Sequence record: PV467749.1
DNA: 64,000 bases
Reading direction: 5' to 3' (one strand)
From: a phage
In this document: piece after piece, positions 245 through 61,028 of the stretch
Layout of the letters: every line of letters begins with the position of its first letter
Numbering within the stretch: position 1 is the first letter of the stretch
Position numbers and translations under genes: made by a program
The notes under the pieces: generated by a model
Told to the model about the DNA's origin: nothing
Databases searched by the model: none
The model's input: the letters and a program-made list of their open reading frames with translations, nothing else

Positions 245-2411
<2,167 letters not shown>

Positions 2412-2424
2412 AGGTTATATACTG

Positions 2425-8634: not shown

Positions 8635-10039
<1,405 letters not shown>

Positions 10040-10041
10040 TC

Positions 10042-10069
10042 ATTATAGCACAGTTCTGGTGTTTGTCCT
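10042..10069 (-). promoter_or_regulatory. sigma70-like promoter, AGGACA-N16-TGCTATAAT class
   Basis: Plus attatagca at 10042-10050 and tgtcct at 10064-10069; shared architecture with five other sites. Confidence 0.4.
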
Positions 10070-10074
10070 AAATT

Positions 10075-16505: not shown

Positions 16506-16518
16506 CCGTGTACTCCTA

Positions 16519-16546
16519 ATTATAGCATCGTATTTTTGTTTGTCTC
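16519..16546 (-). promoter_or_regulatory. sigma70-like promoter GAGACA-N16-TGCTATAAT
   Basis: Plus attatagca at 16519-16527 and tgtctc at 16541-16546, in the intergenic gap upstream of the nuclease gene. Confidence 0.45.
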
Positions 16547-16551
16547 AGTTT

Positions 16552-22912: not shown

Positions 22913-22941
22913 AATTTAATCCTTGTTATTTCTCACAAATG

Positions 22942-22969
22942 ATTATAGCACAAACACTTGTTTTGTCTC
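22942..22969 (-). promoter_or_regulatory. sigma70-like promoter GAGACA-N16-TGCTATAAT upstream of primase
   Basis: Plus attatagca at 22942-22950 and tgtctc at 22964-22969. Confidence 0.45.
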
Positions 22970-33053: not shown

Positions 33054-38298
<5,245 letters not shown>

Positions 38299-38304
38299 AG
38301 ATTT

Positions 38305-38380
38305 GATAAATAATATCATAGAGATCAGGGAATATTGCCTTAAATTTAAATGTGGTTTATATTTTTTGATAAATAATATT
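38305..38380 (+). promoter_or_regulatory. tandem late-promoter-like motifs upstream of paralogous virion genes
   Basis: TTGATAAATAATAT occurs twice (38305-38319 and 38368-38380); the second is ~42 nt upstream of ATG 38422. Confidence 0.4.
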
Positions 38381-38421
38381 AAGCAGGGTGTTCCTGCACA
38401 AAATTTGACAAGGAGATTTTT

Positions 38422-39021
38422 ATGAGTCTTAATTCTTTTAACCGTAACTATGGTATGTCTGCTACTGCTCGTGAATACTGGGGTGGTAACAATGGTTTCG
38501 TAACCATCGTTGTTGATCTACCAGCAGATGTTGAAGTTGGTACTACCGCTGTTACTTCTGACGGTTCCGAAATTCAAGATGAAGCACTACAAACTGCAAT
38601 CAGCAATGCTCAATACAACCAATTCATGATTACCCAACTACTACAACAACGTGCAGTACTAGTTACTACTTCCGTACTAGCTCTAGACACCGCTGTTGTT
38701 ATCCCTGCTGACTTTAAAACCGTTGGTGGTAACGTAATCGCGTTTGGTACTAGTGGTGCTGATGTTACAGGTGGTGCTGGTTCTGTTGCTCTAACCTTCA
38801 TCTGTGAACGTCAAGACGTATTTGACAAACAAGAAGTTCGCCCAGGTGCTGCTTACTCTGTACCAGTTGATCCAACTGTTGAACTAGCTAAAGCTATTGC
38901 ACAAGCTAAATTCTTCCGTACCAAATCTTATGTTGCTCTAGGTACTGATGGTGTTGGTGATGCTGCTGCCGCTGACGCTGTTGCAATTAAAGTTCGTGCT
39001 GCTCTACCAGTACAACTATAA
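38422..39021 (+). CDS. putative abundant virion protein (paralog 1)
   Basis: 199 aa; AGGAG RBS; strongly biased codons (CTA, CGT, GGT, GCT); paralogous to next gene. Confidence 0.6.
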   Translation: MSLNSFNRNYGMSATAREYWGGNNGFVTIVVDLPADVEVGTTAVTSDGSEIQDEALQTAISNAQYNQFMITQLLQQRAVLVTTSVLALDTAVVIPADFKTVGGNVIAFGTSGADVTGGAGSVALTFICERQDVFDKQEVRPGAAYSVPVDPTVELAKAIAQAKFFRTKSYVALGTDGVGDAAAADAVAIKVRAALPVQL

Positions 39022-39036
39022 TAGGGGGACTACAAT

Positions 39037-39726
39037 ATGTCTAATACTAATACTTCTTTTGAACGTATCAATGGTTATTCCTTTGATAAAATTCTAGGTT
39101 ACTTCTGTGGCAAAAACGCCCTAGCATCTATCGCAATTAGTAAAATTGGTAATGTTAACGTGCGTGTTACTGGTGCAGTTGGTTCTTTCGCTGGTCTACA
39201 ACGTTTCCTAAACACTGATGTAGCTGATGAAATCGTTGCATATCTAAACGAAAAAGGTATCATCCGTATCGATGGTACTCCATTTGAAGCAGCAACTCTA
39301 GAAGCTGATTATAACGCTGCTTACGCTGCACAAACTAACGTTAAACGTATCGTTGATGTTGTTCAACAACGTGCAGTTATCATCGCTACTTCCGAAATCG
39401 CTGGCAACGACGTTGAGCCATTTGCAGTTACTGGTTTTACCAACGCTGCTGACGGTATCCTAAGTGTTGGGTCTGTTGATATCGCTAGTGCTTCAGTAGT
39501 TACTTTCCTCGTTGAACGTGCTAACGTATTTGATAAAGATATTCAATCTTTCCAAGGCGTTCCAAGTACTGAGATCGAAGAAGGCCGTCTACTAATTGAT
39601 GACCTAACCGCAGTTCCACTACTCGCTAAAGATGGTGTTACTGAAGTTGTTCTACGTTCCCAAGCTGCTGATGCTGCTGGTGACTTCGGTATCAAACTAT
39701 TCAAATTCATCCCAGCGATGGTTTAA
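39037..39726 (+). CDS. putative abundant virion protein (paralog 2)
   Basis: 229 aa; shares QQRAV..TS and F(I/L)xER.(D/N)VFDK motifs with paralog 1; same codon bias. Confidence 0.6.
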   Translation: MSNTNTSFERINGYSFDKILGYFCGKNALASIAISKIGNVNVRVTGAVGSFAGLQRFLNTDVADEIVAYLNEKGIIRIDGTPFEAATLEADYNAAYAAQTNVKRIVDVVQQRAVIIATSEIAGNDVEPFAVTGFTNAADGILSVGSVDIASASVVTFLVERANVFDKDIQSFQGVPSTEIEEGRLLIDDLTAVPLLAKDGVTEVVLRSQAADAAGDFGIKLFKFIPAMV

Positions 39727-41797: not shown

Positions 41798-41864
41798 TAT
41801 ATAATTCTCCGTTTTATTTGTTAATCAAAAATGTTTTTGTATGCTTCAGATTACTACAAGCACC

Positions 41865-41894
41865 ATTATATCTCGTGAATGATGCTTGTCTCAA
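41865..41894 (-). promoter_or_regulatory. sigma70-like promoter TTGAGA-N18-TATAAT
   Basis: Plus attata at 41865-41870 and tctcaa at 41889-41894 upstream of the 243-aa gene. Confidence 0.35.
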
Positions 41895-41901
41895 TTTTTT
41901 A

Positions 41902-45750: not shown

Positions 45751-45773
45751 TTGTTTGCTTCTCCATGTGTTTT

Positions 45774-45809
45774 GAAAAAAATGTCATCTCACAACCGCTG
45801 TAAGATGAC
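45774..45809 (-). terminator. intrinsic terminator downstream of tail fiber gene
   Basis: GTCATCT/AGATGAC stem with 13-nt loop followed by U7 on the minus strand. Confidence 0.4.
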
Positions 45810-45849
45810 TACATTGTATCACTACTTTAAAAGTTGTCTCAATATTTTT

Positions 45850-48322: not shown

Positions 48323-49420
48323 TTACTTAAAAGTATTTACAATTTCTAAAACACTTTCAAGATACTTAGCATCAAAAGTTTCAGTAAATCCTGATGGCAA
48401 CTCTTCAGTACTTACCACACCACTTTCAATGTATTTCTTTATGAACTTTTCCAACAGTAATGGTTGATTGCCATCTTCAAAGTAGCGTTCTATAAGTACT
48501 TCATGCTCGAACTCAGAATTGCGGCTTTGTTCGTTAACACGGCGTTTCATATCACCAGTGATCCCATATTTGTACACCGTCTTGTTATTGTTAGTTAGTT
48601 TTTGTACATAGAAATATCCAGGTTTTGATGGTTGATATCCATATTCACCACATGATGGACATCCTTTACCAGCCATATGTGCTTTTGGTTGTTGGGAGAA
48701 GACACCATGAGTCGGACATACAATATCAATATAATTCTCGCTTAAAGTATATTCAACCAAGCTATAATCATACTTATGGTTATGGATAGGCGACACAAGT
48801 TCAATGAAACGTTCAGTGCTTCTTCCACCTTTACCAGAACATGTACCGCAGCCAGTTTTACCCTTCAATAAAGTTTGGGCTGAAACAGTCCATTCGTGTT
48901 TACCGCGTGTGCAATATACGGTAACTTCCGTTTTATTGTTAACATATTTGGTATTTGGAAATTCAAACGCACCACCATAGTTTTCTTTTACTTTTGCGAT
49001 GAATGATTCAGTACTGTATGCTTCATTTTTATTACAGACAGGACATCCCCTACCAGAAAGAAATTTGTTTGGTGTAATTTCAAAGTAATCGTTATGGTCT
49101 TCATCAGTGCAAAATAGTGTTACTTTTGTTATAGCGTTAGTGTAATTTAGTTTATCAAATTTGAATTTATCTTTACCAAATTTAGTTTCTACAGTACTGA
49201 TGAATGTGTCGTTGTTTGAACGCTGTGACATGTTTGAATAACATGATGCACATGTACATGCAATGTGACGAAGTGCAGACTTGGTGTTTTCTTTCCCACA
49301 CTTGTTACATTTTACTGTTGTTTTACTTGCCTTGAATACTAAAGTACTGAAGTCAAATTCTCCATACTTAGCAGTCATTTGGTTAATAAACTCTTCTTTG
49401 TTGATACTTACGTTTGGCAT
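48323..49420 (-). CDS. zinc-ribbon repeat + T5orf172-like domain protein (free-standing endonuclease-like)
   Basis: 365 aa; three repeats of a KYDYS..VEY...C..HG.F.Q.P..H..G.GCP.C module, then KPGYFYV...KYGIT C-terminal domain; paralog of 60324..61028. Confidence 0.55.
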   Translation of the reverse strand: MPNVSINKEEFINQMTAKYGEFDFSTLVFKASKTTVKCNKCGKENTKSALRHIACTCASCYSNMSQRSNNDTFISTVETKFGKDKFKFDKLNYTNAITKVTLFCTDEDHNDYFEITPNKFLSGRGCPVCNKNEAYSTESFIAKVKENYGGAFEFPNTKYVNNKTEVTVYCTRGKHEWTVSAQTLLKGKTGCGTCSGKGGRSTERFIELVSPIHNHKYDYSLVEYTLSENYIDIVCPTHGVFSQQPKAHMAGKGCPSCGEYGYQPSKPGYFYVQKLTNNNKTVYKYGITGDMKRRVNEQSRNSEFEHEVLIERYFEDGNQPLLLEKFIKKYIESGVVSTEELPSGFTETFDAKYLESVLEIVNTFK

Positions 49421-49489
49421 ATTTTTGTCTCTTTGATAGCGTGTATGTGCGTATTATACATAACCAAAAACATCATGTCAATGTTTTTA

Positions 49490-49516
49490 ATAAAAAAAGG
49501 GACTCCGAAGAGTCCC
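49490..49516 (-). terminator. intrinsic terminator downstream of major capsid gene
   Basis: GGGACUC-uucg-GAGUCCC hairpin followed by U7. Confidence 0.6.
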
Positions 49517-49560
49517 TATTGTTTTTAATTTCTTGATTAAATCTTTTAAATCGATTATAA

Positions 49561-50736: not shown

Positions 50737-50770
50737 TATTATCTCCTTAAAGATGTTATATTCGTTTTTC

Positions 50771-50826
50771 AGTATGATATTATTTATAGAACTGAAAAAT
50801 TTGATTATTAAAATGCTTTAAAATGT
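50771..50826 (-). promoter_or_regulatory. late promoter (TATAAATA) with conserved upstream module, copy A
   Basis: Minus-strand TATAAATAATATCATAC (plus 50772-50788) ~45 nt upstream of the capsid ATG; ~55 nt similar to 53510-53568. Confidence 0.5.
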
Positions 50827-51942
50827 TTATTTTTTATTGATACCAGAAAGAACATCGAGTTCTTTTAGGAATGCCATATCGTCAGCGGTCATTTCTTCGC
50901 TTTCAACAATAGCCTGACGGTTGCCAGTGATTACTTTACCTTCTGCAAGAGTTCTCTTAGCGGAAGACTGAACTGCTTGACGAGTGGTAGCAGATTCATT
51001 TACTTTAGTACCGTTAAGTACTGACTTATGGTACTTGCTGAAATCGTCTTTAAGCTTTTCTGTAGGAGAAGTAGCTAGAAGGGATTCCATAATTTGTTTC
51101 TGTTGTGTAGTTAGTGGCTTAACTAGTTCAGACATAATCGCATTACGAGCTTGTGAATCTTCCATAATACGTAGTTTGGTTTTAGCAGCTTTAACTTCAC
51201 TTACAGTTTCATTTAGTTCTTGTTTAACTTGTGCAATTTCGTCTTCTTTAGACTTAATTGATTCAGTTAGGGAACGTAGTAGTGAATTCTCATTAAATTG
51301 TTTGACATTAAACTCTTGAGCAAACGCTTCAAAGATTTTACGACCAAACATATTTTGTTTTGCTTCAACAAGATCTTCTTTCAAAGCGTATAGGTTTTTC
51401 TGAGTAGTTTCTGCAATATATTTAGCAGCACTTTCAGATGTACGTTTGATGAAGTTGTTACGTGCTTCAGCAATTTGACGGGAGCCTTCAGCTAGTAGTT
51501 TAACGCGAGTTTCAACTAGTTGACGTTTCTCGATGTGGAATTCTTTTAGCTCTTCTGCTAGGATACCGTTAGAGAAATTAACGAATTTACCCATGCATTC
51601 TTGAAGATGCTTACGTTCTTTACGCATTTGTTTAACTTCTTCAGCCAAAACAGAGTTAGAAAACGCAGAGAAATTACTTAGGGTTTTACGGAGAGTTACA
51701 CGATCTTCTACAAGACGTTTTTTCTCTTCATATACTGCACCCATTTCTTCAGCGATAACTTGAGTAACCATAGTATTTAGACCTTCGGTTAGCTCAGACA
51801 AATCTTGTTTGTAGCGGCCTTTCATTTCTTCACGCATTTCTGCGGCAAGTGTGTTTTTTTCTTCATTCCATGCTTCCTGAATTAGCTGTTTTGCCTCATC
51901 AGAAAGAGATGATTCTTTTAGAAGCTTTTCTAATTTAGACAT
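50827..51942 (-). CDS. scaffold protein (gp22-like, coiled-coil)
   Basis: 371 aa, K/E-rich heptad-like sequence, between prohead protease and capsid genes. Confidence 0.5.
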   Translation of the reverse strand: MSKLEKLLKESSLSDEAKQLIQEAWNEEKNTLAAEMREEMKGRYKQDLSELTEGLNTMVTQVIAEEMGAVYEEKKRLVEDRVTLRKTLSNFSAFSNSVLAEEVKQMRKERKHLQECMGKFVNFSNGILAEELKEFHIEKRQLVETRVKLLAEGSRQIAEARNNFIKRTSESAAKYIAETTQKNLYALKEDLVEAKQNMFGRKIFEAFAQEFNVKQFNENSLLRSLTESIKSKEDEIAQVKQELNETVSEVKAAKTKLRIMEDSQARNAIMSELVKPLTTQQKQIMESLLATSPTEKLKDDFSKYHKSVLNGTKVNESATTRQAVQSSAKRTLAEGKVITGNRQAIVESEEMTADDMAFLKELDVLSGINKK

Positions 51943-51989
51943 TCGTTCTCTCCTTTAAGTACTGAAATATCTGTACTTCAACATACAAA

Positions 51990-51997
51990 TATTTATA
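51990..51997 (-). promoter_or_regulatory. late promoter TATAAATA upstream of scaffold gene
   Basis: Exact TATAAATA on the minus strand 48 nt upstream of ATG 51942. Confidence 0.4.
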
Positions 51998-52008
51998 TTT
52001 TTAAAATG

Positions 52009-52629
52009 TTAACCTTTTAATTTCTTGAAAAAATCGTAAATTTCAGAATCTACATTATTTACTGTTTTAGATTCTGTGATTTTTTTAGGACTATTACAAG
52101 GTGATCCGTACTTACTCATCAGAGATTCAAAAACCGCAGTAGGGTATGCCTCTGGAGCACTAGGTTGAGCAACAATATCAATTGTGATAATTTCAAAATC
52201 AGAAACTATTCCATTGTAATCCACGTTACCGGAACCACGAGAACTTACACCAAGTTTCACACCAGCTTCTAGCATTTTACGAATATTAGTACCATGAGCA
52301 GTATCAAGTAGTTTGATTTCTGCCATGCCGTTAGCACCTTCCATCCAGACCTTAGTAATCATTGCTGCTACACGGTCAAGGTTAATTGTTAGTGTTTCAG
52401 GGTGGTCACATTCAACTAGAATACTTTCACCTTTAGCCAAACGTTGAGCCATATTATTAACAGCTTTAGTAATTTCGGCTAAAGGGTAAATTCTCTCATT
52501 TAAATTTCTTTGATCGGCTTGAATAGCAATACCACGAAGATAGCAATCACGCCCACCAAGTCCATTATCACGATGTTCCAAAACAACTTTAGAATCATTG
52601 AATGAAGACCATTCACGAATCATACTCAT
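52009..52629 (-). CDS. prohead protease (gp21-like)
   Basis: 206 aa; position between core and scaffold genes; His and Ser candidates (ECDHPE, GVSSRGSG). Confidence 0.55.
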   Translation of the reverse strand: MSMIREWSSFNDSKVVLEHRDNGLGGRDCYLRGIAIQADQRNLNERIYPLAEITKAVNNMAQRLAKGESILVECDHPETLTINLDRVAAMITKVWMEGANGMAEIKLLDTAHGTNIRKMLEAGVKLGVSSRGSGNVDYNGIVSDFEIITIDIVAQPSAPEAYPTAVFESLMSKYGSPCNSPKKITESKTVNNVDSEIYDFFKKLKG

Positions 52630-52660
52630 AATGATCTCCTTTCCTTTTCTTTATTTAGTG

Positions 52661-53476
52661 TTAGATTTTTGGTTGTGATTTTGGTAGTGGAGAACGAGAT
52701 TTAGAAGCGGTATTTTTTGGCTTCGCAACATCTTTCATTTCGCCACGAGCATTTTTACCTAGGTCTTCATCAGTGTGGGACATAGCATCTTCGTTTTCAA
52801 AATCATAATCTACTTGTTTTTCGGAAGCTTTAGCGAATTTCACTGGAGCAACACCTTGAACTGGAGATTTAGCTTCTGGTGCAACTGGGGACTTGGTATT
52901 AACGCCAGCTTTTTCTTTCTTATCAACCGCAGCAACTTGCTTAAGTTTGAAAGACTCACCAACTTTCTCATCACCGAATTGTACATCAGCAAATTCGTCT
53001 TCAGATTCTTCACCATCAGCACCAACTTCAACTTCTTCGTCGTCAGAACCTAGGTCAACTTCATCACCACCGATTTCGTCAAACATTTGTTGTAGGCCAC
53101 GGAAAGCATCTTGAATAGATTCCCATTGGTCTTCGGAAGGAACTTCTGCACCAACTTCTGCTTCAGCGTCAACTTCTTCGCCATCAGCATCAGCAGAGAA
53201 TTCAACTTCTTCTTCTGCACTTTCATCTTCTTCACCTAGGGTGTATTCGATTTCAGCATTTAGACCAGCGTCTGGTTGAACATCAAAGTCTTCGTCAAGT
53301 TTTTCTTCGTCTTTGACTTCAACTTCACATTCTTCTTCGTCCATGCTTTCTTCTAGTTCTTTATTGATTTCTTGAGCTTGCTCAACAAAGTACTTACGCA
53401 TTTTTTTATCAGCAACATCTTGTTCGCCGTTTGCAAACGCTTCAATTGCTTCTTGTAGTAGTTTTAAATTCGCCAT
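52661..53476 (-). CDS. highly acidic prohead core/scaffold-like protein
   Basis: ORF 52661..53488 (start probably ATG 53476 after GGAGG RBS); extreme D/E content. Confidence 0.45.
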   Translation of the reverse strand: MANLKLLQEAIEAFANGEQDVADKKMRKYFVEQAQEINKELEESMDEEECEVEVKDEEKLDEDFDVQPDAGLNAEIEYTLGEEDESAEEEVEFSADADGEEVDAEAEVGAEVPSEDQWESIQDAFRGLQQMFDEIGGDEVDLGSDDEEVEVGADGEESEDEFADVQFGDEKVGESFKLKQVAAVDKKEKAGVNTKSPVAPEAKSPVQGVAPVKFAKASEKQVDYDFENEDAMSHTDEDLGKNARGEMKDVAKPKNTASKSRSPLPKSQPKI

Positions 53477-53509
53477 TATATCCTCCATAGATATATTACA
53501 TTCATATAA

Positions 53510-53568
53510 AGTATGATATTATTTAGTACTGAAAAATTTCGCCATTTTTAAAAGCTTTAAAAAGTGCG
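53510..53568 (-). promoter_or_regulatory. late promoter with conserved upstream module, copy B
   Basis: ACTAAATAATATCATAC plus upstream ...ACTGAAAAATTT...TTTAAAAGCTTTAAAA, near-identical to copy A. Confidence 0.45.
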
Positions 53569-53576
53569 ATTTTTGT

Positions 53577-57825: not shown

Positions 57826-57970
57826 AACATTCCCTTTTAATAGATGTATTATAGAAATATTTATGAATCTATAACGAATAAAAAAGACCCATCTATAACA
57901 TTTGTCCAATTTGTCCCATTTTTTGGTAATAAATACTACAGAGACATTTATTACATGGAGATTTAATAAA

Positions 57971-58807
57971 ATGGCAATGAACCCACTAGCTAAGTATACT
58001 AAAATTGAAGAACTTGGTACAAAATTGGTCACAAATGGCGTGATTCCTTATAAAGAAGGAGTTCTTGGCTCTAAAGGTATCAAATGTGGCATTTGTGCTC
58101 GTAGTGCACGCGATGAAATGACACTCAATACACCAGATATGCTTCTAAATGGTGATGCAATTGCTCGTGTTATTGAAAACTGCGTACCTAACGTACTTGA
58201 TGCAGATGAACTTTATGTAAATGACGTAGAGCAACTACTTATCGCTATTAAAGTAGCTTCTAAAGAAGAATCATATGATATTAATGTGACATGTCCTGAA
58301 TGTAACAAAGAAGGCCGTTTTGAGCGTAGCTTATCATATCTACTAGAAACAGCACATACTTTCAGTGAAGTTCCTACTGTACAATTGGATAATGGACTAA
58401 GTTTAGAGTTTAGACCACTTACTTGGAAGGAATATTCTAACTTCGCAGAAAGAATGTTTACAGAACAACAAAAAACTAAATTCCTTGAAACTGCCGAAAT
58501 GGAGCAGGAAGAAAAAGTTAAAGTGTTTGGTGAAGTATTTGAAAGTATGGCACAACTCAACTTTGATATGATCGCAGGAGTTATTGCTAAAGTAATTACT
58601 CCTGAAGGTGATGAAGTAACTGAAAACGAATTCATTTCTGAATGGCTAGGTCAGCAGTCCAAAGGAACACTTAAAATAATTCGTGAAAAAATGGATGAAG
58701 TACTTGAAATTGGTGTTTCCCATACTATGGAAGTTGAATGCAGTGACTGTAATCATCAATGGGAAATTAATGGACTGAAATATGACCCAAGTCATTTTTT
58801 CGCATAA
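57971..58807 (+). CDS. hypothetical protein with two CxxC pairs
   Basis: ORF 57902..58807 (start probably ATG 57971 after GGAG); CGIC...CPEC and CSDC motifs. Confidence 0.45.
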   Translation: MAMNPLAKYTKIEELGTKLVTNGVIPYKEGVLGSKGIKCGICARSARDEMTLNTPDMLLNGDAIARVIENCVPNVLDADELYVNDVEQLLIAIKVASKEESYDINVTCPECNKEGRFERSLSYLLETAHTFSEVPTVQLDNGLSLEFRPLTWKEYSNFAERMFTEQQKTKFLETAEMEQEEKVKVFGEVFESMAQLNFDMIAGVIAKVITPEGDEVTENEFISEWLGQQSKGTLKIIREKMDEVLEIGVSHTMEVECSDCNHQWEINGLKYDPSHFFA

Positions 58808-59016
58808 TGCTTCTCCACTCATCTCCTGAAGAAATACAAGAAGTACTTAAGGAATTTGAGTTGAATAAGTCAGATATTAAAACTGCATTAATGGAGTGTT
58901 CTGTTTATATGGAAAGTGTTGATTACGGAACACTACTTAATATGCCACTAATTGATAGAGACTTATTAGTTAAGTCTTTTAATAAGAAAATTAAAAAACA
59001 AAACGAGAAGCACTAA
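58807..59016 (+). CDS. hypothetical small protein
   Basis: 69-aa ORF coupled to the upstream gene. Confidence 0.35.
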   Translation: MLLHSSPEEIQEVLKEFELNKSDIKTALMECSVYMESVDYGTLLNMPLIDRDLLVKSFNKKIKKQNEKH

Positions 59017-59854: not shown

Positions 59855-60340
59855 ATGAAGAAAAGATTAAAAGATAGTAAAGAAGCTGCAAACTATCGAA
59901 ATGAATTACTAAAGAAGCAAAAAGGAATTGATCCTATAATTAAGGAACCAATAACTAAGCCAGTACTTGATCACTATCACTTCGAGAATCAACATTGTCG
60001 CGGAGTACTCCAGAATGAGATAAACGCCTTTGAGGGTAAGGTTTCCAACGCATGGAACCGATATGGAAAGCATTTAACTGATATGCCATTACATGAAGTA
60101 CTAAGAAACCTTGCAGATTATCTTGAAAAGAACAATAATATCCCACTGGAAGAACAGGTGATTCATCACACGGCACTAACTGTGGATGTAAACAAGTTTA
60201 AAAGGCTCCCTGCAACGCGTCAGAACGAGATATTGGGGTTATGCGGTATAGAGCCATTACCTAATACAAAAGAACGCTCAAAGAGAGCTAGAGAGCTTAT
60301 TAAGAAAGGAATTCTCAATATAAATGAATACAAAAAATGA
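59855..60340 (+). CDS. endonuclease VII-like (gp49-like) His-Me finger nuclease
   Basis: 161 aa; LDHYHFENQHCRGVLQNEINAFEG resembles the endo VII core; late-type CATAAATATTT motif at 59817-59828. Confidence 0.55.
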   Translation: MKKRLKDSKEAANYRNELLKKQKGIDPIIKEPITKPVLDHYHFENQHCRGVLQNEINAFEGKVSNAWNRYGKHLTDMPLHEVLRNLADYLEKNNNIPLEEQVIHHTALTVDVNKFKRLPATRQNEILGLCGIEPLPNTKERSKRARELIKKGILNINEYKK

Positions 60341-61028
60341 TATTTTTATAGATAAAGCAAATATAAAACATAACAACAAATATGAATATACATTAGTTGA
60401 GTATGTAAATAATTACACTAAAGTTAAAATTATATGTAAGAAACATGGTATGTTTTCACAAACTCCAAATCACCATTTAAAAGGAAGTGGATGTAATGAA
60501 TGTTACTTAGAAAGCAAGCACGATACTAAAGATGACTTCATAAAAAAATCCATGAAAGTTCATGGTGAATTATATGATTACTCAAATGTGATATATAAAT
60601 CTTCAAAGAAAAAAGTTGAAATTATATGCAATAAACATGGTTCTTTTTATCAGAGGCCACATGAACATATATCAGGTAAAGGTTGTTCAGAATGTGGAGT
60701 TGGTGGTTACAAGAGAAGTAAACCAGGTCGTTTATATGTATATGAAGTTTTACAAGACGACAAAACTATAGCATACAAATACGGAATAACTAATGGTACT
60801 ATTAATAATAGAAAATATTACCATGAGTATCACTCTAACTTAAAATTTAATTGTGTTTATGAACTATATGATGAAGATGGTAATGTTCCATATAATATAG
60901 AAAAAGCAATAAAAGCTGGCATGAAAAGTGTTTTTTTATCAAAAACTATTTTAGAAGTTGGGTATACCGAAACGATAGAACCGTCTTTATATGAAGATTT
61001 GATTAATATAATAAAAAAAGGGAGCTAA
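60324..61028 (+). CDS. zinc-ribbon repeat + T5orf172-like domain protein (free-standing endonuclease-like)
   Basis: 234 aa; two KYEYT..VEY...C..HG.F.Q.P..H..G.GC.EC modules then KPGRLYVYEV...KYGIT; paralog of 48323..49420. Confidence 0.55.
   Translation: MNTKNDIFIDKANIKHNNKYEYTLVEYVNNYTKVKIICKKHGMFSQTPNHHLKGSGCNECYLESKHDTKDDFIKKSMKVHGELYDYSNVIYKSSKKKVEIICNKHGSFYQRPHEHISGKGCSECGVGGYKRSKPGRLYVYEVLQDDKTIAYKYGITNGTINNRKYYHEYHSNLKFNCVYELYDEDGNVPYNIEKAIKAGMKSVFLSKTILEVGYTETIEPSLYEDLINIIKKGS

Follow-up and report, generated by a model that had tools for sequence, protein, structure and literature searches.

Two intergenic regions of a phage genome, one upstream of the major capsid gene and the other upstream of a gene for a 271-aa acidic head (virion structural) protein, share a stretch of about 55 nt, which raises the question of whether this whole stretch is one extended late promoter or a short promoter joined at each gene to upstream sequence of a different kind. 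The window that we analyzed is a 64,000-nt stretch of DNA (sequence record PV467749.1). By its sequence it belongs to an Asteriusvirus, a 121Q/Rak2-like jumbo coliphage, and the window phage is 98.9% identical to Escherichia phage vB_Ec-M-J and about 90% identical to 121Q. Whole-genome motif counts were made in TH47, a complete genome of 352 kb that is 98% identical to the window phage. The explanation we favor, and hold as a whole to be reasonably probable, is that the two regions contain T4-type late promoters with composite upstream parts that are related through duplication of a cassette.

Two similar elements upstream of head genes

The capsid-gene element (50771-50826) and the 271-aa-gene element (53510-53568) both lie on the minus strand, in the orientation of the genes they precede; as a minor correction, the start of the 271-aa gene, first placed at 53488, is the ATG at 53476, behind GGAGGA. 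The capsid-gene copy reads TAA-ACATTTTAAAGCATTTTAATAATCAAATTTTTCAGTTCTATAAATAATATCATACT and the 271-aa-gene copy reads ...CACTTTTTAAAGCTTTTAAAAATGGCGAAATTTTTCAGTACTAAATAATATCATACT, and the near identity that the first-pass annotation described between them holds: their alignment spans 59 nt with 83% identity (54.5 bits; E = 2e-10 within the window), well beyond what other pairs of late promoters reach, and contains exact blocks of 9, 12, and 16 nt in collinear order. The sequence between the shared blocks differs (TTCTA versus AC).

The genome is 35-37% G+C with intergenic regions even richer in A/T, short exact A/T-rich words repeat by coincidence, and a 14-mer found at these promoters is common across unrelated IMG/VR contigs, all of which would allow some likeness by chance between two A/T-rich intergenic stretches that each hold a late promoter. 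Against such a coincidence, the 55 nt upstream of TAAATA give a local alignment score of 44 between the two elements, compared with a median of 13 for other pairs of late promoters (95th percentile, 17.5) and a highest value of 34 among 5,000 shuffles; with the three shared blocks also collinear, this shuffle test disfavors chance similarity, which we regard as extremely improbable.

Within the window the upstream block is confined to two sites, and TH47 (352 kb) holds two alike copies and one 25-nt partial copy. Scores between the upstream blocks are 43 in the window-like subclade, 28 in 121Q, and 16-22 in other genera, and on the sequences compared their high similarity is specific to the window-like subclade.

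A short oriented core precedes virion genes

In a profile of 56 candidate late promoters, the core (A/c/g)TAAATA is the only informative part. Its distance to the start codon peaks at 26-35 nt, and the flanking positions have no more than a slight preference for T at -14..-9 and, downstream, a slight A-T-A-T tendency at +6..+9; the profile contains no -35-like signal and no information between -30 and -15. The extended consensus that had been proposed falls away here, with the positions flanking the core nearly information-free, and to take the long shared sequence of the two elements for such a consensus is to over-read it.

The core itself is a genuine oriented signal in front of virion genes across the genome. 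Upstream of genes, [ACG]TAAATA occurs 19 times in sense and 2 times in antisense orientation in the window (zones of -90..-8) and 56 versus 9 times in the whole TH47 genome. By PHROG assignments and syntenic 121Q annotation it precedes virion, terminase, tail-fibre, and endo VII genes, and the short TAAATA variants noted earlier do stand before the scaffold, protease, tail-fibre, endo VII, 734-aa structural, and baseplate-hub genes. Replication genes carry other promoters (TTGACA or TGAGACAA...TATAAT). A divergent late-promoter pair lies at 57830-57960.

The longer word TAAATAATATCATA had been called genome-wide, and this does not extend beyond the locus: TH47 has 3 exact copies of the 14-mer, all within the region that this window covers, while TAAATAATAT has 12 occurrences there. 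The third exact copy (GATAAATAATATCATA, 38305..38320, plus strand) lies upstream of paralogous virion genes at 38422..39021 and 39037..39726, and a second late core (GATAAATAATAT, 38368..38379, plus strand) stands 46 nt before the 199-aa virion gene. A further late core (GATAAATAATATTATA, 34380..34395, minus strand), in which 34380-34393 is the 14-mer with one mismatch, lies 29 nt before a 434-aa virion structural gene. The copies cited in the first-pass annotation at 38305, 38368, and 34381 are therefore present, and the genes behind them all belong to "virion structural protein" families. For 121Q/Rak2-like jumbo phages, a usable late-promoter definition would be (A/c/g)TAAATA about 26-35 nt before the start codon.

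Before the major capsid gene the core is TATAAATA (50781..50788, minus strand, with TAAATA at 50786..50781), which every relative has as ATAAATAA; at the 271-aa gene the core is CTAAATA (53520..53526, minus strand), and the core at the same place in relatives is TATAAATAAT or CTAAATA, or GATATAAATAATATACA in PA5oct. Each is followed on the same strand by an ATAT melting segment and a start region, in an AT-rich stretch with a conserved C(-1)A(+1)TAC at the capsid gene (50771..50780) and as ATAT plus CATACT at the 271-aa gene (53510..53519), and CATAC is conserved at both genes in most clades. T4 spacing predicts that late transcription of the capsid gene starts at the A at 50775, and the predicted start for the 271-aa gene is the A at 53514. 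We thus picture two strong T4-type late promoters, each built of a gp55-type core, (T)ATAAATA or CTAAATA, at about -13..-6, the ATAT melting segment, and the C(-1)A(+1)TAC start, at which host RNA polymerase with a phage gp55-like sigma factor would initiate late in infection. The upstream ~35 nt that the two share would not be a common promoter element.

A late promoter was reportedly predicted for Cronobacter phage GAP32 by Abbasifar et al. in 2014, as cited in Buttimer 2017. For Pectobacterium phage CBB as well as GAP32, a late promoter "ATAAATA" and a gp55-like sigma factor were predicted earlier (Buttimer et al. 2017, PMC5259590). Our sites are like theirs in phage group, in the motif with A/T downstream, in the association with structural genes, and in the gp55-like sigma factor. 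The capsid (orf257) and orf254 promoters are missing from the 35 sites listed for CBB, the ARNold terminator list of the same authors has no site homologous to the hairpin that we describe below (after orf253), and the CBB/GAP32 work includes no published analysis of flanks, hairpins, or inverted repeats (PMC5259590). The promoter type is already predicted for sister phages, and the detail added here is modest and ordinary in kind. The literature searched holds no transcript 5' or 3' ends for any Asteriusvirus and no promoter analysis of Asteriusvirus, and RNA sequencing of PA5oct yielded sigma70-like motifs only.

A gp55-type sigma factor gene lies beside the window in close relatives

The sigma gene is absent from the window itself. 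Gene 591 of 121Q matches phrog_234, "late sigma transcription factor" (E = 8e-18), and TH47 has a 95%-identical copy about 230 nt past the window's right edge, where a gene annotated "sigma factor for late transcription" adjoins an SbcD-like gene. At 279 aa, the homologue is extended at its N terminus by about 120 aa, shows no obvious hydrophobic clamp-binding tail at its C terminus, and has no Pfam or PDB sequence match. Its location is of value for annotation and engineering, and together with the oriented motif and its placement before late genes, this gene supports the proposal of a T4/gp55-type late program. Homologues of gp33 and gp45 were not found, and the clamp loader was confirmed with no clamp recognised among 7 neighboring genes. 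The CBB authors likewise found neither gp33 nor gp45 (PMC5259590), which conflicts with the gp33 ortholog and PCNA-type clamp reported for "group 2" phages by Iyer 2021.

In T4 the late TATA box and the start downstream of it are separated by about one helical turn, and an AT-rich segment follows the box (PMC2988020). Our promoters are alike in having a single -10-type A/T box (TATAAATA at the capsid gene) at that distance, an AT-rich segment just downstream of it, and no -35 element, in preceding virion genes on either strand, and in belonging to a phage that encodes a gp55-family sigma factor. They differ in the core, here 7 bp and without a preference at T4's -13 position, and in the sigma factor, which unlike T4 gp55 has the extension and lacks the obvious tail.

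The extension bears on whether the whole ~55 nt could be one extended late-promoter module, with the AT-rich block and T-run as an upstream activating element for the gp55-type holoenzyme, be it UP-like (contacted by alpha-CTD), intrinsically bent, or the site of a small DsbA-like phage DNA-binding protein. Besides the additional N-terminal region of about 120 aa, such a module would fit the weak general T preference at -14..-9 in the 56 late cores and a third late promoter just beyond the window, where TTTCAGTAC stands directly before TATAAATAATA. T4 DsbA binds A/T-rich sites overlapping two late promoters, and non-specific upstream DNA contacts aid basal gp55 transcription (PMC2988020); a DsbA ortholog is reported for this phage group. 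We consider such a module unlikely, because the 56-site profile is without upstream information, the block occurs at two window sites only and is alike in one subclade only, and T4 late promoters have no upstream element (PMC2988020). The structure of the two blocks, set out in the following sections, also divides what was taken for one module into a hairpin with a U-run at one site and an inverted-repeat arm at the other.

A conserved hairpin abuts the promoter of the 271-aa head gene

Upstream of the 271-aa-gene core, an AU-rich hairpin, UCGC-AC-UUUUUAAA-GCU-UUUAAAAA-UG-GCGA (53539..53569, minus strand), begins 8 nt past the stop codon of the 75-aa gene (TAA 53577-53579) in all relatives and is followed by AAATTTTTCAGT (53527..53538, minus strand), a U-run and then CAGT. 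This segment matches the capsid-gene copy exactly only in the window-like subclade; 121Q has GATTTTATTCAGT. The hairpin was found in all 11 relatives (dG of -7.6 to -20.8 kcal/mol), with z-scores of -3.5 to -4.7 in four genera. The window has a weak version (dG of -7.9 kcal/mol, z of -1.1, 3 G-C pairs, U-run 2-3 nt from the stem) compared with relatives' hairpins of -12 to -21 kcal/mol, in which the U-run directly follows the stem, and a terminator consensus scan of the window did not call the hairpin at 53539-53569.

The outer stem covaries (UCGC/GCGA, UCCG/CGGA, GUGCCA/UGGUAU, UGGCA/UGCCA). G-U pairs number up to 5 per hairpin, and in the CBB clade, PHA46, and UE-S1 they give the sense strand a large advantage in stability over the antisense strand (-16 to -21 versus -4 to -10 kcal/mol). 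PA5oct has at the same position a canonical GC-rich terminator, GGGGCATAAATGCCCC-TTTTTT, and then its core. The hairpin thus stands at the end of a transcription unit, with a structure conserved at the RNA level across relatives, and we read it as a putative intrinsic terminator or leaky attenuator abutting the promoter, which would close the portal/75-aa transcription unit. Covariation of RNA type, with G-U pairs on the sense strand only, and an unrelated GC-rich terminator in the block's place in PA5oct also argue against a DNA element that activates the promoter from upstream.

This arrangement of terminator and late promoter recurs in the genome. At 13/56 late cores a hairpin with a T-run is present no more than 22 nt upstream, compared with 17/300 random positions, and the hairpins of the other cassettes are unrelated to one another in sequence. 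PeSL and PmSL, known from T4-type phages, are cassettes that combine a terminator with a promoter (Arbiol 2010, PMC2839356; Comeau 2014, PMC4122927), and the 271-aa-gene copy, like the 13 of 56 cores, resembles them in uniting a stem-loop terminator and a promoter in one short intergenic unit. We suggest that hairpin and promoter form a composite terminator and late-promoter cassette parallel to the early/middle PeSL/PmSL cassettes. Unlike in these, the promoter here is of the late type and the hairpins are unrelated in sequence except in the two copies studied.

An inverted repeat and an invariant spacer at the capsid gene

The corresponding block at the capsid gene (ACATTTTAAAGCATTTTAATAATCAAA, 50800..50826, minus strand) is A/T-rich, lies directly after the scaffold-gene stop codon (TAA 50827-50829), and has no structure of its own (0.0 kcal/mol in 11 phages). 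Next to it is the 5' arm of a perfect 9-bp inverted repeat (TTTTTCAGT, 50791..50799, minus strand), whose 3' arm (ACTGAAAAA, 50765..50773, minus strand) is predicted to be +3..+11 of the late transcript. The arms flank the promoter core, and in each of the 9 sequences the loop between them, of 15-22 nt, holds both the core and the predicted start. The repeat is present in 9/9 distinct spacers from 5 clades, with one compensatory switch (CAGT/ACTG -> CTGT/ACAG) and one G-U pair, and a hairpin is predicted in every clade (dG of -5.8 to -9.4 kcal/mol). The repeat is A/T-rich, 1.6% of shuffles also yield an arm of 9 bp, the z-scores for folds of the whole spacer are just -0.6 to -1.9, and the covariation rests on essentially one compensatory event.

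Pairing of TTTTTCAGT with ACTGAAAAA, just past the predicted start, would occur only in RNA read through from upstream promoters and not in RNA started at the promoter itself, and the stem may act on the stability, processing, or translation of read-through RNA. Read-through transcripts of the T4 genes e, soc, 49, and I-TevI are kept from being translated by an RNA structure within which a late promoter lies (PMC3014915). The capsid gene is like gene e in that the promoter core lies between the strands of a stem and only read-through RNA is predicted to fold. Unlike in gene e, the conserved stem of 7-9 bp includes neither the Shine-Dalgarno sequence (AAGGAGAT, 50741..50748, minus strand) nor the AUG (ATG at 50736-50734), and the predicted probability that the Shine-Dalgarno sequence is unpaired differs little, at 0.42 in read-through RNA versus 0.57 in late-start RNA. 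Only for the E. coli clade is the pairing predicted to extend as far as AAGG; outside of this clade the ribosome-binding site is not hidden, and the predictions speak against a translational switch of the gene e type at the capsid gene. A clear arrangement of that type is present at 2351-2424 in the window (predicted Shine-Dalgarno accessibility of 0.00 in read-through versus 0.64 in late-start RNA). These sites are evidence for terminator and late-promoter cassettes and for T4-style hairpin switches in the 121Q/Rak2-like group.

The capsid spacer is also exceptional in its conservation. All 90 nt are identical to 121Q (90/90, 0 substitutions), making it the sole perfectly conserved gap among 34; 1% of 65-nt windows are perfect in this comparison, and flanking third-codon positions are 82-91% identical to 121Q. 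About 33 genomes carry the 65-nt element with 100% identity. A 90-nt spacer that is invariant across genomes differing at 10-18% of neighboring silent sites is of wider interest: if its invariance is due to a control element that lies upstream of or flanks a gp55-type promoter, the textbook view of late promoters as no more than a TATA box would need revision. Our favored explanation of late promoters with composite upstream parts does not account for perfect conservation of the unstructured AT-rich block at 50800-50826, which is not common to other late promoters.

Conservation over the full length of the spacer, including the part without RNA structure, is a point in favor of the extended module; the distance from the T-run to the core, which differs by 3 bp between clades, is a point against it. 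A dedicated control device at the capsid promoter alone could also be proposed, in which the invariant AT-rich block and the bracketing repeat serve as a platform to which a phage factor or the gp55-like sigma factor, with its extended N terminus, binds, or act as an RNA switch on read-through transcripts. Both versions would give a gp55-type promoter a working element outside its core, contrary to the T4 paradigm; we rate this as rather doubtful.

Probable descent of the shared block

PA5oct is without the capsid-gene spacer and promoter, so that the spacer was either gained or lost. The likeness of the two blocks probably reflects common descent, with the capsid gene having acquired its own promoter when a cassette of terminator and promoter was duplicated, and with later changes in the window-like subclade that increased the resemblance. 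In this subclade the 271-aa-gene copy has three substitutions, all of which raise its identity to the capsid copy.

The same observations could be taken to mean that the likeness is a by-product of recombination, a terminator-promoter cassette copied or patch-converted in the manner of PeSLs, with the upstream part at the capsid gene a functionless relic. The state of PA5oct and the three substitutions would fit this, as would the resemblance of the capsid copy to a hairpin after loss of its G-C clamp, the retention of different fragments in different clades, and the PeSL/PmSL precedents (PMC2839356, PMC4122927). A relic should decay, yet no intergenic region of the window is better conserved than the capsid spacer, which is invariant in about 33 genomes. 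The TTCTA versus AC difference between the shared blocks means that there is no simple conversion tract, and there are two copies only, in a conserved head module, where PeSLs occur as many copies in plastic regions. We judge a functionless relic to be distinctly improbable.

The copies lie in the conserved head module, unlike PeSL/PmSL copies in hyperplastic regions, and show no link to gene shuffling. A mobile PeSL/PmSL-type cassette with many conserved copies was considered and rejected, with two alike copies and one 25-nt partial copy in 352 kb. A textbook example of an early-type terminator-promoter cassette is present elsewhere in the window, at 49453-49517.

Late promoters of the Asteriusvirus head module

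The window is 98.9% identical to Escherichia phage vB_Ec-M-J and ~90% identical to 121Q, PBECO4, and phAPEC6 by sequence comparison, which on these grounds places the phage in Asteriusvirus, the 350-380 kb Rak2-like jumbo myoviruses. Almost all of its genes lie on the minus strand, and the two elements examined here, one upstream of the major capsid gene (50771-50826, minus strand; the capsid copy) and one upstream of the gene for a 271-aa acidic head protein (53510-53568, minus strand; the 271-aa copy), sit in a T4-like head module ordered portal, 75-aa gene, 271-aa virion protein, prohead protease, scaffold, and major capsid protein. Both are real, related late promoters of a kind already predicted for this phage group; the new details are a conserved terminator-like hairpin, an inverted repeat that brackets a promoter, and unusually strong conservation at the capsid spacer.

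Within positions -90 to -8 of start codons, the window has 19 sense and 2 antisense occurrences of the late core [ACG]TAAATA. The corresponding counts are 56 and 9 in TH47, an assembled complete relative (352 kb, ~98% identical to the window) in which core-to-start-codon distances cluster at 26-35 nt. The genes downstream encode virion, terminase, tail-fibre, baseplate, and endo VII functions; replication genes carry other upstream sites, either TTGACA-N17-TATAAT or TGAGACAA...TGnTATAAT. No gp55-like sigma gene lies inside the window, but gene 591 of 121Q (L007:9986-10825), annotated as a sigma factor for late transcription, gives a gp55-type PHROG match over residues 125-262 (E = 8e-18), and its TH47 counterpart (267312-268148, minus strand, 95% identical) lies ~230 nt past the position of the window's right edge. 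PHROGs alone recognised this protein, as Pfam and PDB sequence searches returned no significant match. T4-type late promoters have an A/T box one turn before the start followed by an AT-rich segment, with no -35 element (Geiduschek and Kassavetis review, PMC2988020), and the motif, its spacing, the gene classes, and the gp55-like sigma fit such a programme. The gp55-type late transcription proposed in the first-pass annotation is supported by an oriented motif, the late genes behind it, and the sigma factor of relatives. Buttimer et al. 2017 (PMC5259590) had already predicted 35 CBB sites with an ATAAATA consensus and A/T downstream, and they also reported this motif from GAP32 and identified a gp55-like sigma, so the motif itself carries no novelty; for Asteriusvirus, our literature search returned no promoter analysis or transcript mapping.

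The gp55-like sigma is 279 aa long, its N-terminal ~120 aa belong to no recognised family, and its C terminus (...IEIELNMIERKNEDGSV) is not obviously the hydrophobic/acidic clamp-binding tail of T4 gp55. A gp45-type clamp was not found next to the clamp loader. The TGAGACAA sites form a second promoter class on the minus strand (TGAGACAA, ~13 nt, then TGnTATAAT, an extended -10), exemplified at 22913-22967, 16506-16551, 45751-45849, 41798-41901, and 10037-10074; the genes they precede are those for primase and exonuclease, genes of the polymerase region, and other replication genes. CBB and GAP32 are reported to carry a 'TGAAACG...TATAAT' class (PMC5259590), to which this one seems to correspond, and the sites are possibly middle-mode promoters. 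At 57830-57960 a divergent pair of late promoters directs CATAAATATTTC toward a 734-aa structural gene and AATAAATAC (plus strand) toward a baseplate-hub gene; the true ATG of the 734-aa gene lies near 57826, not at the GTG at 58032, and the mechanically called ORFs 58213..58635 and 58646..58822 (minus strand) are probably spurious.

An extended form of the motif had also been put forward as a genome-wide consensus, which the TH47 data contradict: the exact 14-mer TAAATAATATCATA occurs only three times, always within the stretch covered by the window, while TAAATAATAT has twelve copies. In a profile of the 56 candidate late promoters of TH47, (A/c/g)TAAATA alone is informative, flanked by a weak A-T-A-T tendency downstream and a weak T preference upstream at -14 to -9. 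An IMG/VR scan for the exact 14-mer matched at least 120 unrelated contigs, an A/T-rich sequence of this length being too common to be informative. The extension belongs to a few head-gene promoters. These have CATAC in common across genera, with C and A at -1/+1 by the T4 spacing rule, and its conservation suggests that the start region of very strong promoters is under selection. Within 38283-38421, the exact 14-mer at 38307-38320 reads TATGATATTATTTA on the opposite strand and there contains -10-like hexamers that face a divergent RNase H-like exonuclease gene (37224..38282) without a late core of its own.

Likeness of the two elements

The reported similarity of the two elements proved correct: both read on the minus strand as described and are 83% identical over 59 nt, with the blocks TTTTAAAGC, AAATTTTTCAGT, and TAAATAATATCATACT in collinear order. 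When only the 55 nt before TAAATA are aligned, excluding the core, the pair scores 44; for all other late-promoter pairs the median is 13 and the 95th percentile 17.5, and the top score in 5000 shuffles is 34, so the likeness is not due to chance. The other cited copies were likewise recovered, at 34380-34393 (minus strand), 38305-38320 (plus strand), and 38368-38379 (plus strand), each before a gene of a 'virion structural protein' PHROG.

Across genomes, the score between the capsid copy and the 271-aa copy falls from 43 in the window to 28 in 121Q, 26 in UE-S1, 22 in RaK2, and 16-22 elsewhere, and the likeness of the upstream blocks is lineage specific. The capsid copy is invariant across Asteriusvirus (its 65-nt element is 100% identical in ~33 genomes), while the 271-aa copy is 100% identical in nine window-like genomes only and 92-93.5% identical in the 121Q/PBECO4 group; 121Q has GATTTTATTCAGT in place of the window-like AAATTTTTCAGT. 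The capsid gene of PA5oct has neither spacer nor promoter. In the simplest history, the capsid gene would have gained its own promoter through duplication of a terminator-promoter cassette, and the duplicate would then have lost its G-C clamp and been re-used as part of an inverted repeat, with later changes in one subclade bringing the two blocks closer in sequence. Comparison of the shared blocks reveals no clean conversion tract between the elements, because TTCTA in one and AC in the other separates the blocks.

A further copy of the module, the third and only partial, lies in TH47 ~7 kb past the window's right end (274271-274295, plus strand; ATATTTCAGTACTATAAATAATAATGAGGAAATCTTTATG), before a baseplate-region gene. 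It was detected in window-like genomes only and has TTTCAGTAC and the core in common with the 271-aa copy.

A terminator-like hairpin upstream of the 271-aa gene

The proposal of a single 55-nt promoter module is not supported: the upstream block is a terminator-like hairpin at the 271-aa gene and an unstructured block with one arm of an inverted repeat at the capsid gene. We footprinted 121Q, UE-S1, PHA46, Hallingskeid, CBB, GAP32, BF, XbC2, fHe-Yen9-04, RaK2/K64-1, and PA5oct, and in every one a hairpin followed by a T-run lies upstream of the 271-aa gene, beginning a few nucleotides past the 75-aa stop codon. Its outer stem carries compensatory differences between clades, and z-scores range from -3.5 to -4.7 in four genera. 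The MAFFT alignments were unfit for a formal pair count, since differences between clades in hairpin loop length and in capsid arm-to-core spacing put the arms out of register, and a structure-anchored tabulation was used instead. Hairpins of the CBB clade contain up to 5 G-U pairs each and fold at -16 to -21 kcal/mol in sense versus -4 to -10 kcal/mol in antisense, a gap that points to selection on RNA. The most distant relative, PA5oct, has a canonical GC-rich terminator at exactly the same spot, followed by GATATAAATAATATACA. From the conserved hairpin and T-run, the RNA-type changes, and the PA5oct terminator, we read this block as a putative intrinsic terminator or attenuator that would close the portal/75-aa unit and abut the next late promoter. 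Of the hairpins compared, that of the window is the weakest (-7.9 kcal/mol, z -1.1); 2-3 nt separate its stem from the U-run, and a consensus terminator scan made no call there. IMG/VR relatives of the 271-aa protein were CBB-clade sequences only and added no diversity.

Genome-wide, a hairpin and T-run ending at most 22 nt upstream accompany 13 of the 56 late cores, ten of these hairpins being canonical terminators, compared with 17 of 300 random positions. The arrangement constitutes a late-promoter counterpart of the PeSL and PmSL cassettes of T4-type phages (PMC2839356, PMC4122927). At 49453-49517 (minus strand), the canonical terminator AGGGACTCTTCGGAGTCCCT-TTTTTTT is immediately followed by a sigma70 promoter (TTGACA-17-TATAAT, 12/12 matches), a PeSL-like early cassette before the endonuclease-like ORF 48323..49420, which comes directly after the capsid gene and in whose position PHA46, CBB, and GAP32 carry different small genes. 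An Rfam search over 49-55 kb and a tRNA scan yielded nothing relevant.

Conservation and an inverted repeat at the capsid spacer

The capsid spacer (90 nt, 0 substitutions relative to 121Q) is the best-conserved noncoding DNA of the window; in the same comparison, intergenic identity averages 87% and just 1% of 65-nt windows match perfectly. Identity at third-codon positions in the flanking genes is 82-91%, and by our own arithmetic 90 unchanged sites at those rates have a probability of ~1e-7 to 2e-4. A terminator is rejected for the capsid copy, whose own fold is 0.0 kcal/mol in 11 phages. The spacer does contain an inverted repeat that the first-pass annotation had missed, with TTTTTCAGT (50799-50791) and its complement ACTGAAAAA (50773-50765) as arms and with the TATAAATA box and the predicted start in the loop. 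All 9 distinct capsid spacers (5 clades) have arms that pair perfectly over 7-9 bp around a loop of 15-22 nt, with CTGT/ACAG in the CBB clade versus CAGT/ACTG in the E. coli clade and a G-U pair in RaK2, and bracketing arms of at least 7 bp enclose only 4 of the 56 late cores (16, 9, 8, and 7 bp). Shuffled sequences yield a 9-bp A/T-rich arm in 1.6% of cases, z-scores for folding of the whole spacer lie between -0.6 and -1.9, and covariation is limited to about one event. The evidence for the inverted repeat is moderate, not strong; the repeat would account for part of the conservation and does not explain the invariance of 50800-50826.

RNA started at the late core would lack the 5' arm, which precedes the predicted start; only transcripts reading through from the 271-aa, protease, or scaffold promoters can form the stem. 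The stem leaves the capsid ribosome-binding site unhidden (predicted SD accessibility 0.42 in read-through RNA from upstream promoters versus 0.57 in RNA started at the late core itself), and the repeat is therefore not a switch of the T4 gene e type. Only in the E. coli clade (z -1.9) is the upstream block predicted to pair further with the 5' UTR, as far as the SD, and this extension is not claimed. A DNA cruciform or 'pre-melted' promoter is unlikely by our reasoning, given loops of 15-22 nt. An IHF site was rejected: by eye, AATCAAATTTTTC at 50793-50805 agrees with WATCAANNNNTTR at 8 of 9 positions, and no match exists in PHA46, the CBB clade, or RaK2. Given the exceptional conservation, a genuine control element upstream of or flanking the promoter is conceivable at the spacer, though we consider it improbable.

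Other features of the window

Within the head module, conservation relative to 121Q is lowest in the 271-aa gene (codon positions 1 and 2, 87-88% identical), and imperfect tandem-like ~36-nt repeats in this gene (52984-53343, minus-strand coding) encode an acidic D/E-rich stretch. The large terminase comprises two ORFs with a 38-nt overlap (34391..35728 and 35691..36035, minus strand; 445 and 114 aa) versus a single 545-aa gene in the 121Q annotation, a split that could reflect a frameshift, a sequencing error, or a different start. The segment 60216-60957, covering most of an HNH-endonuclease ORF (60324..61028, plus strand) that adjoins the endo VII gene, finds no alignment in TH47, where another insert of ~1.1 kb occupies the place; the spot is therefore variable between very close relatives.

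Upstream of ORF 1805..2350, at 2351-2424 (minus strand), a 16-bp inverted repeat, AAAAAACTCCAAGATT...AATCTTGGAGTTTTTT, encloses a late core, GATAAATA, whose TAAATA lies at 2385-2380, and the GGAG of the downstream gene falls within the 3' arm of the repeat. Predicted SD accessibility is 0.00 in read-through RNA versus 0.64 in late-start RNA. The arrangement, by these predictions a translational switch of the T4 lysozyme/soc/gene 49 type (PMC3014915), is conserved in 121Q.
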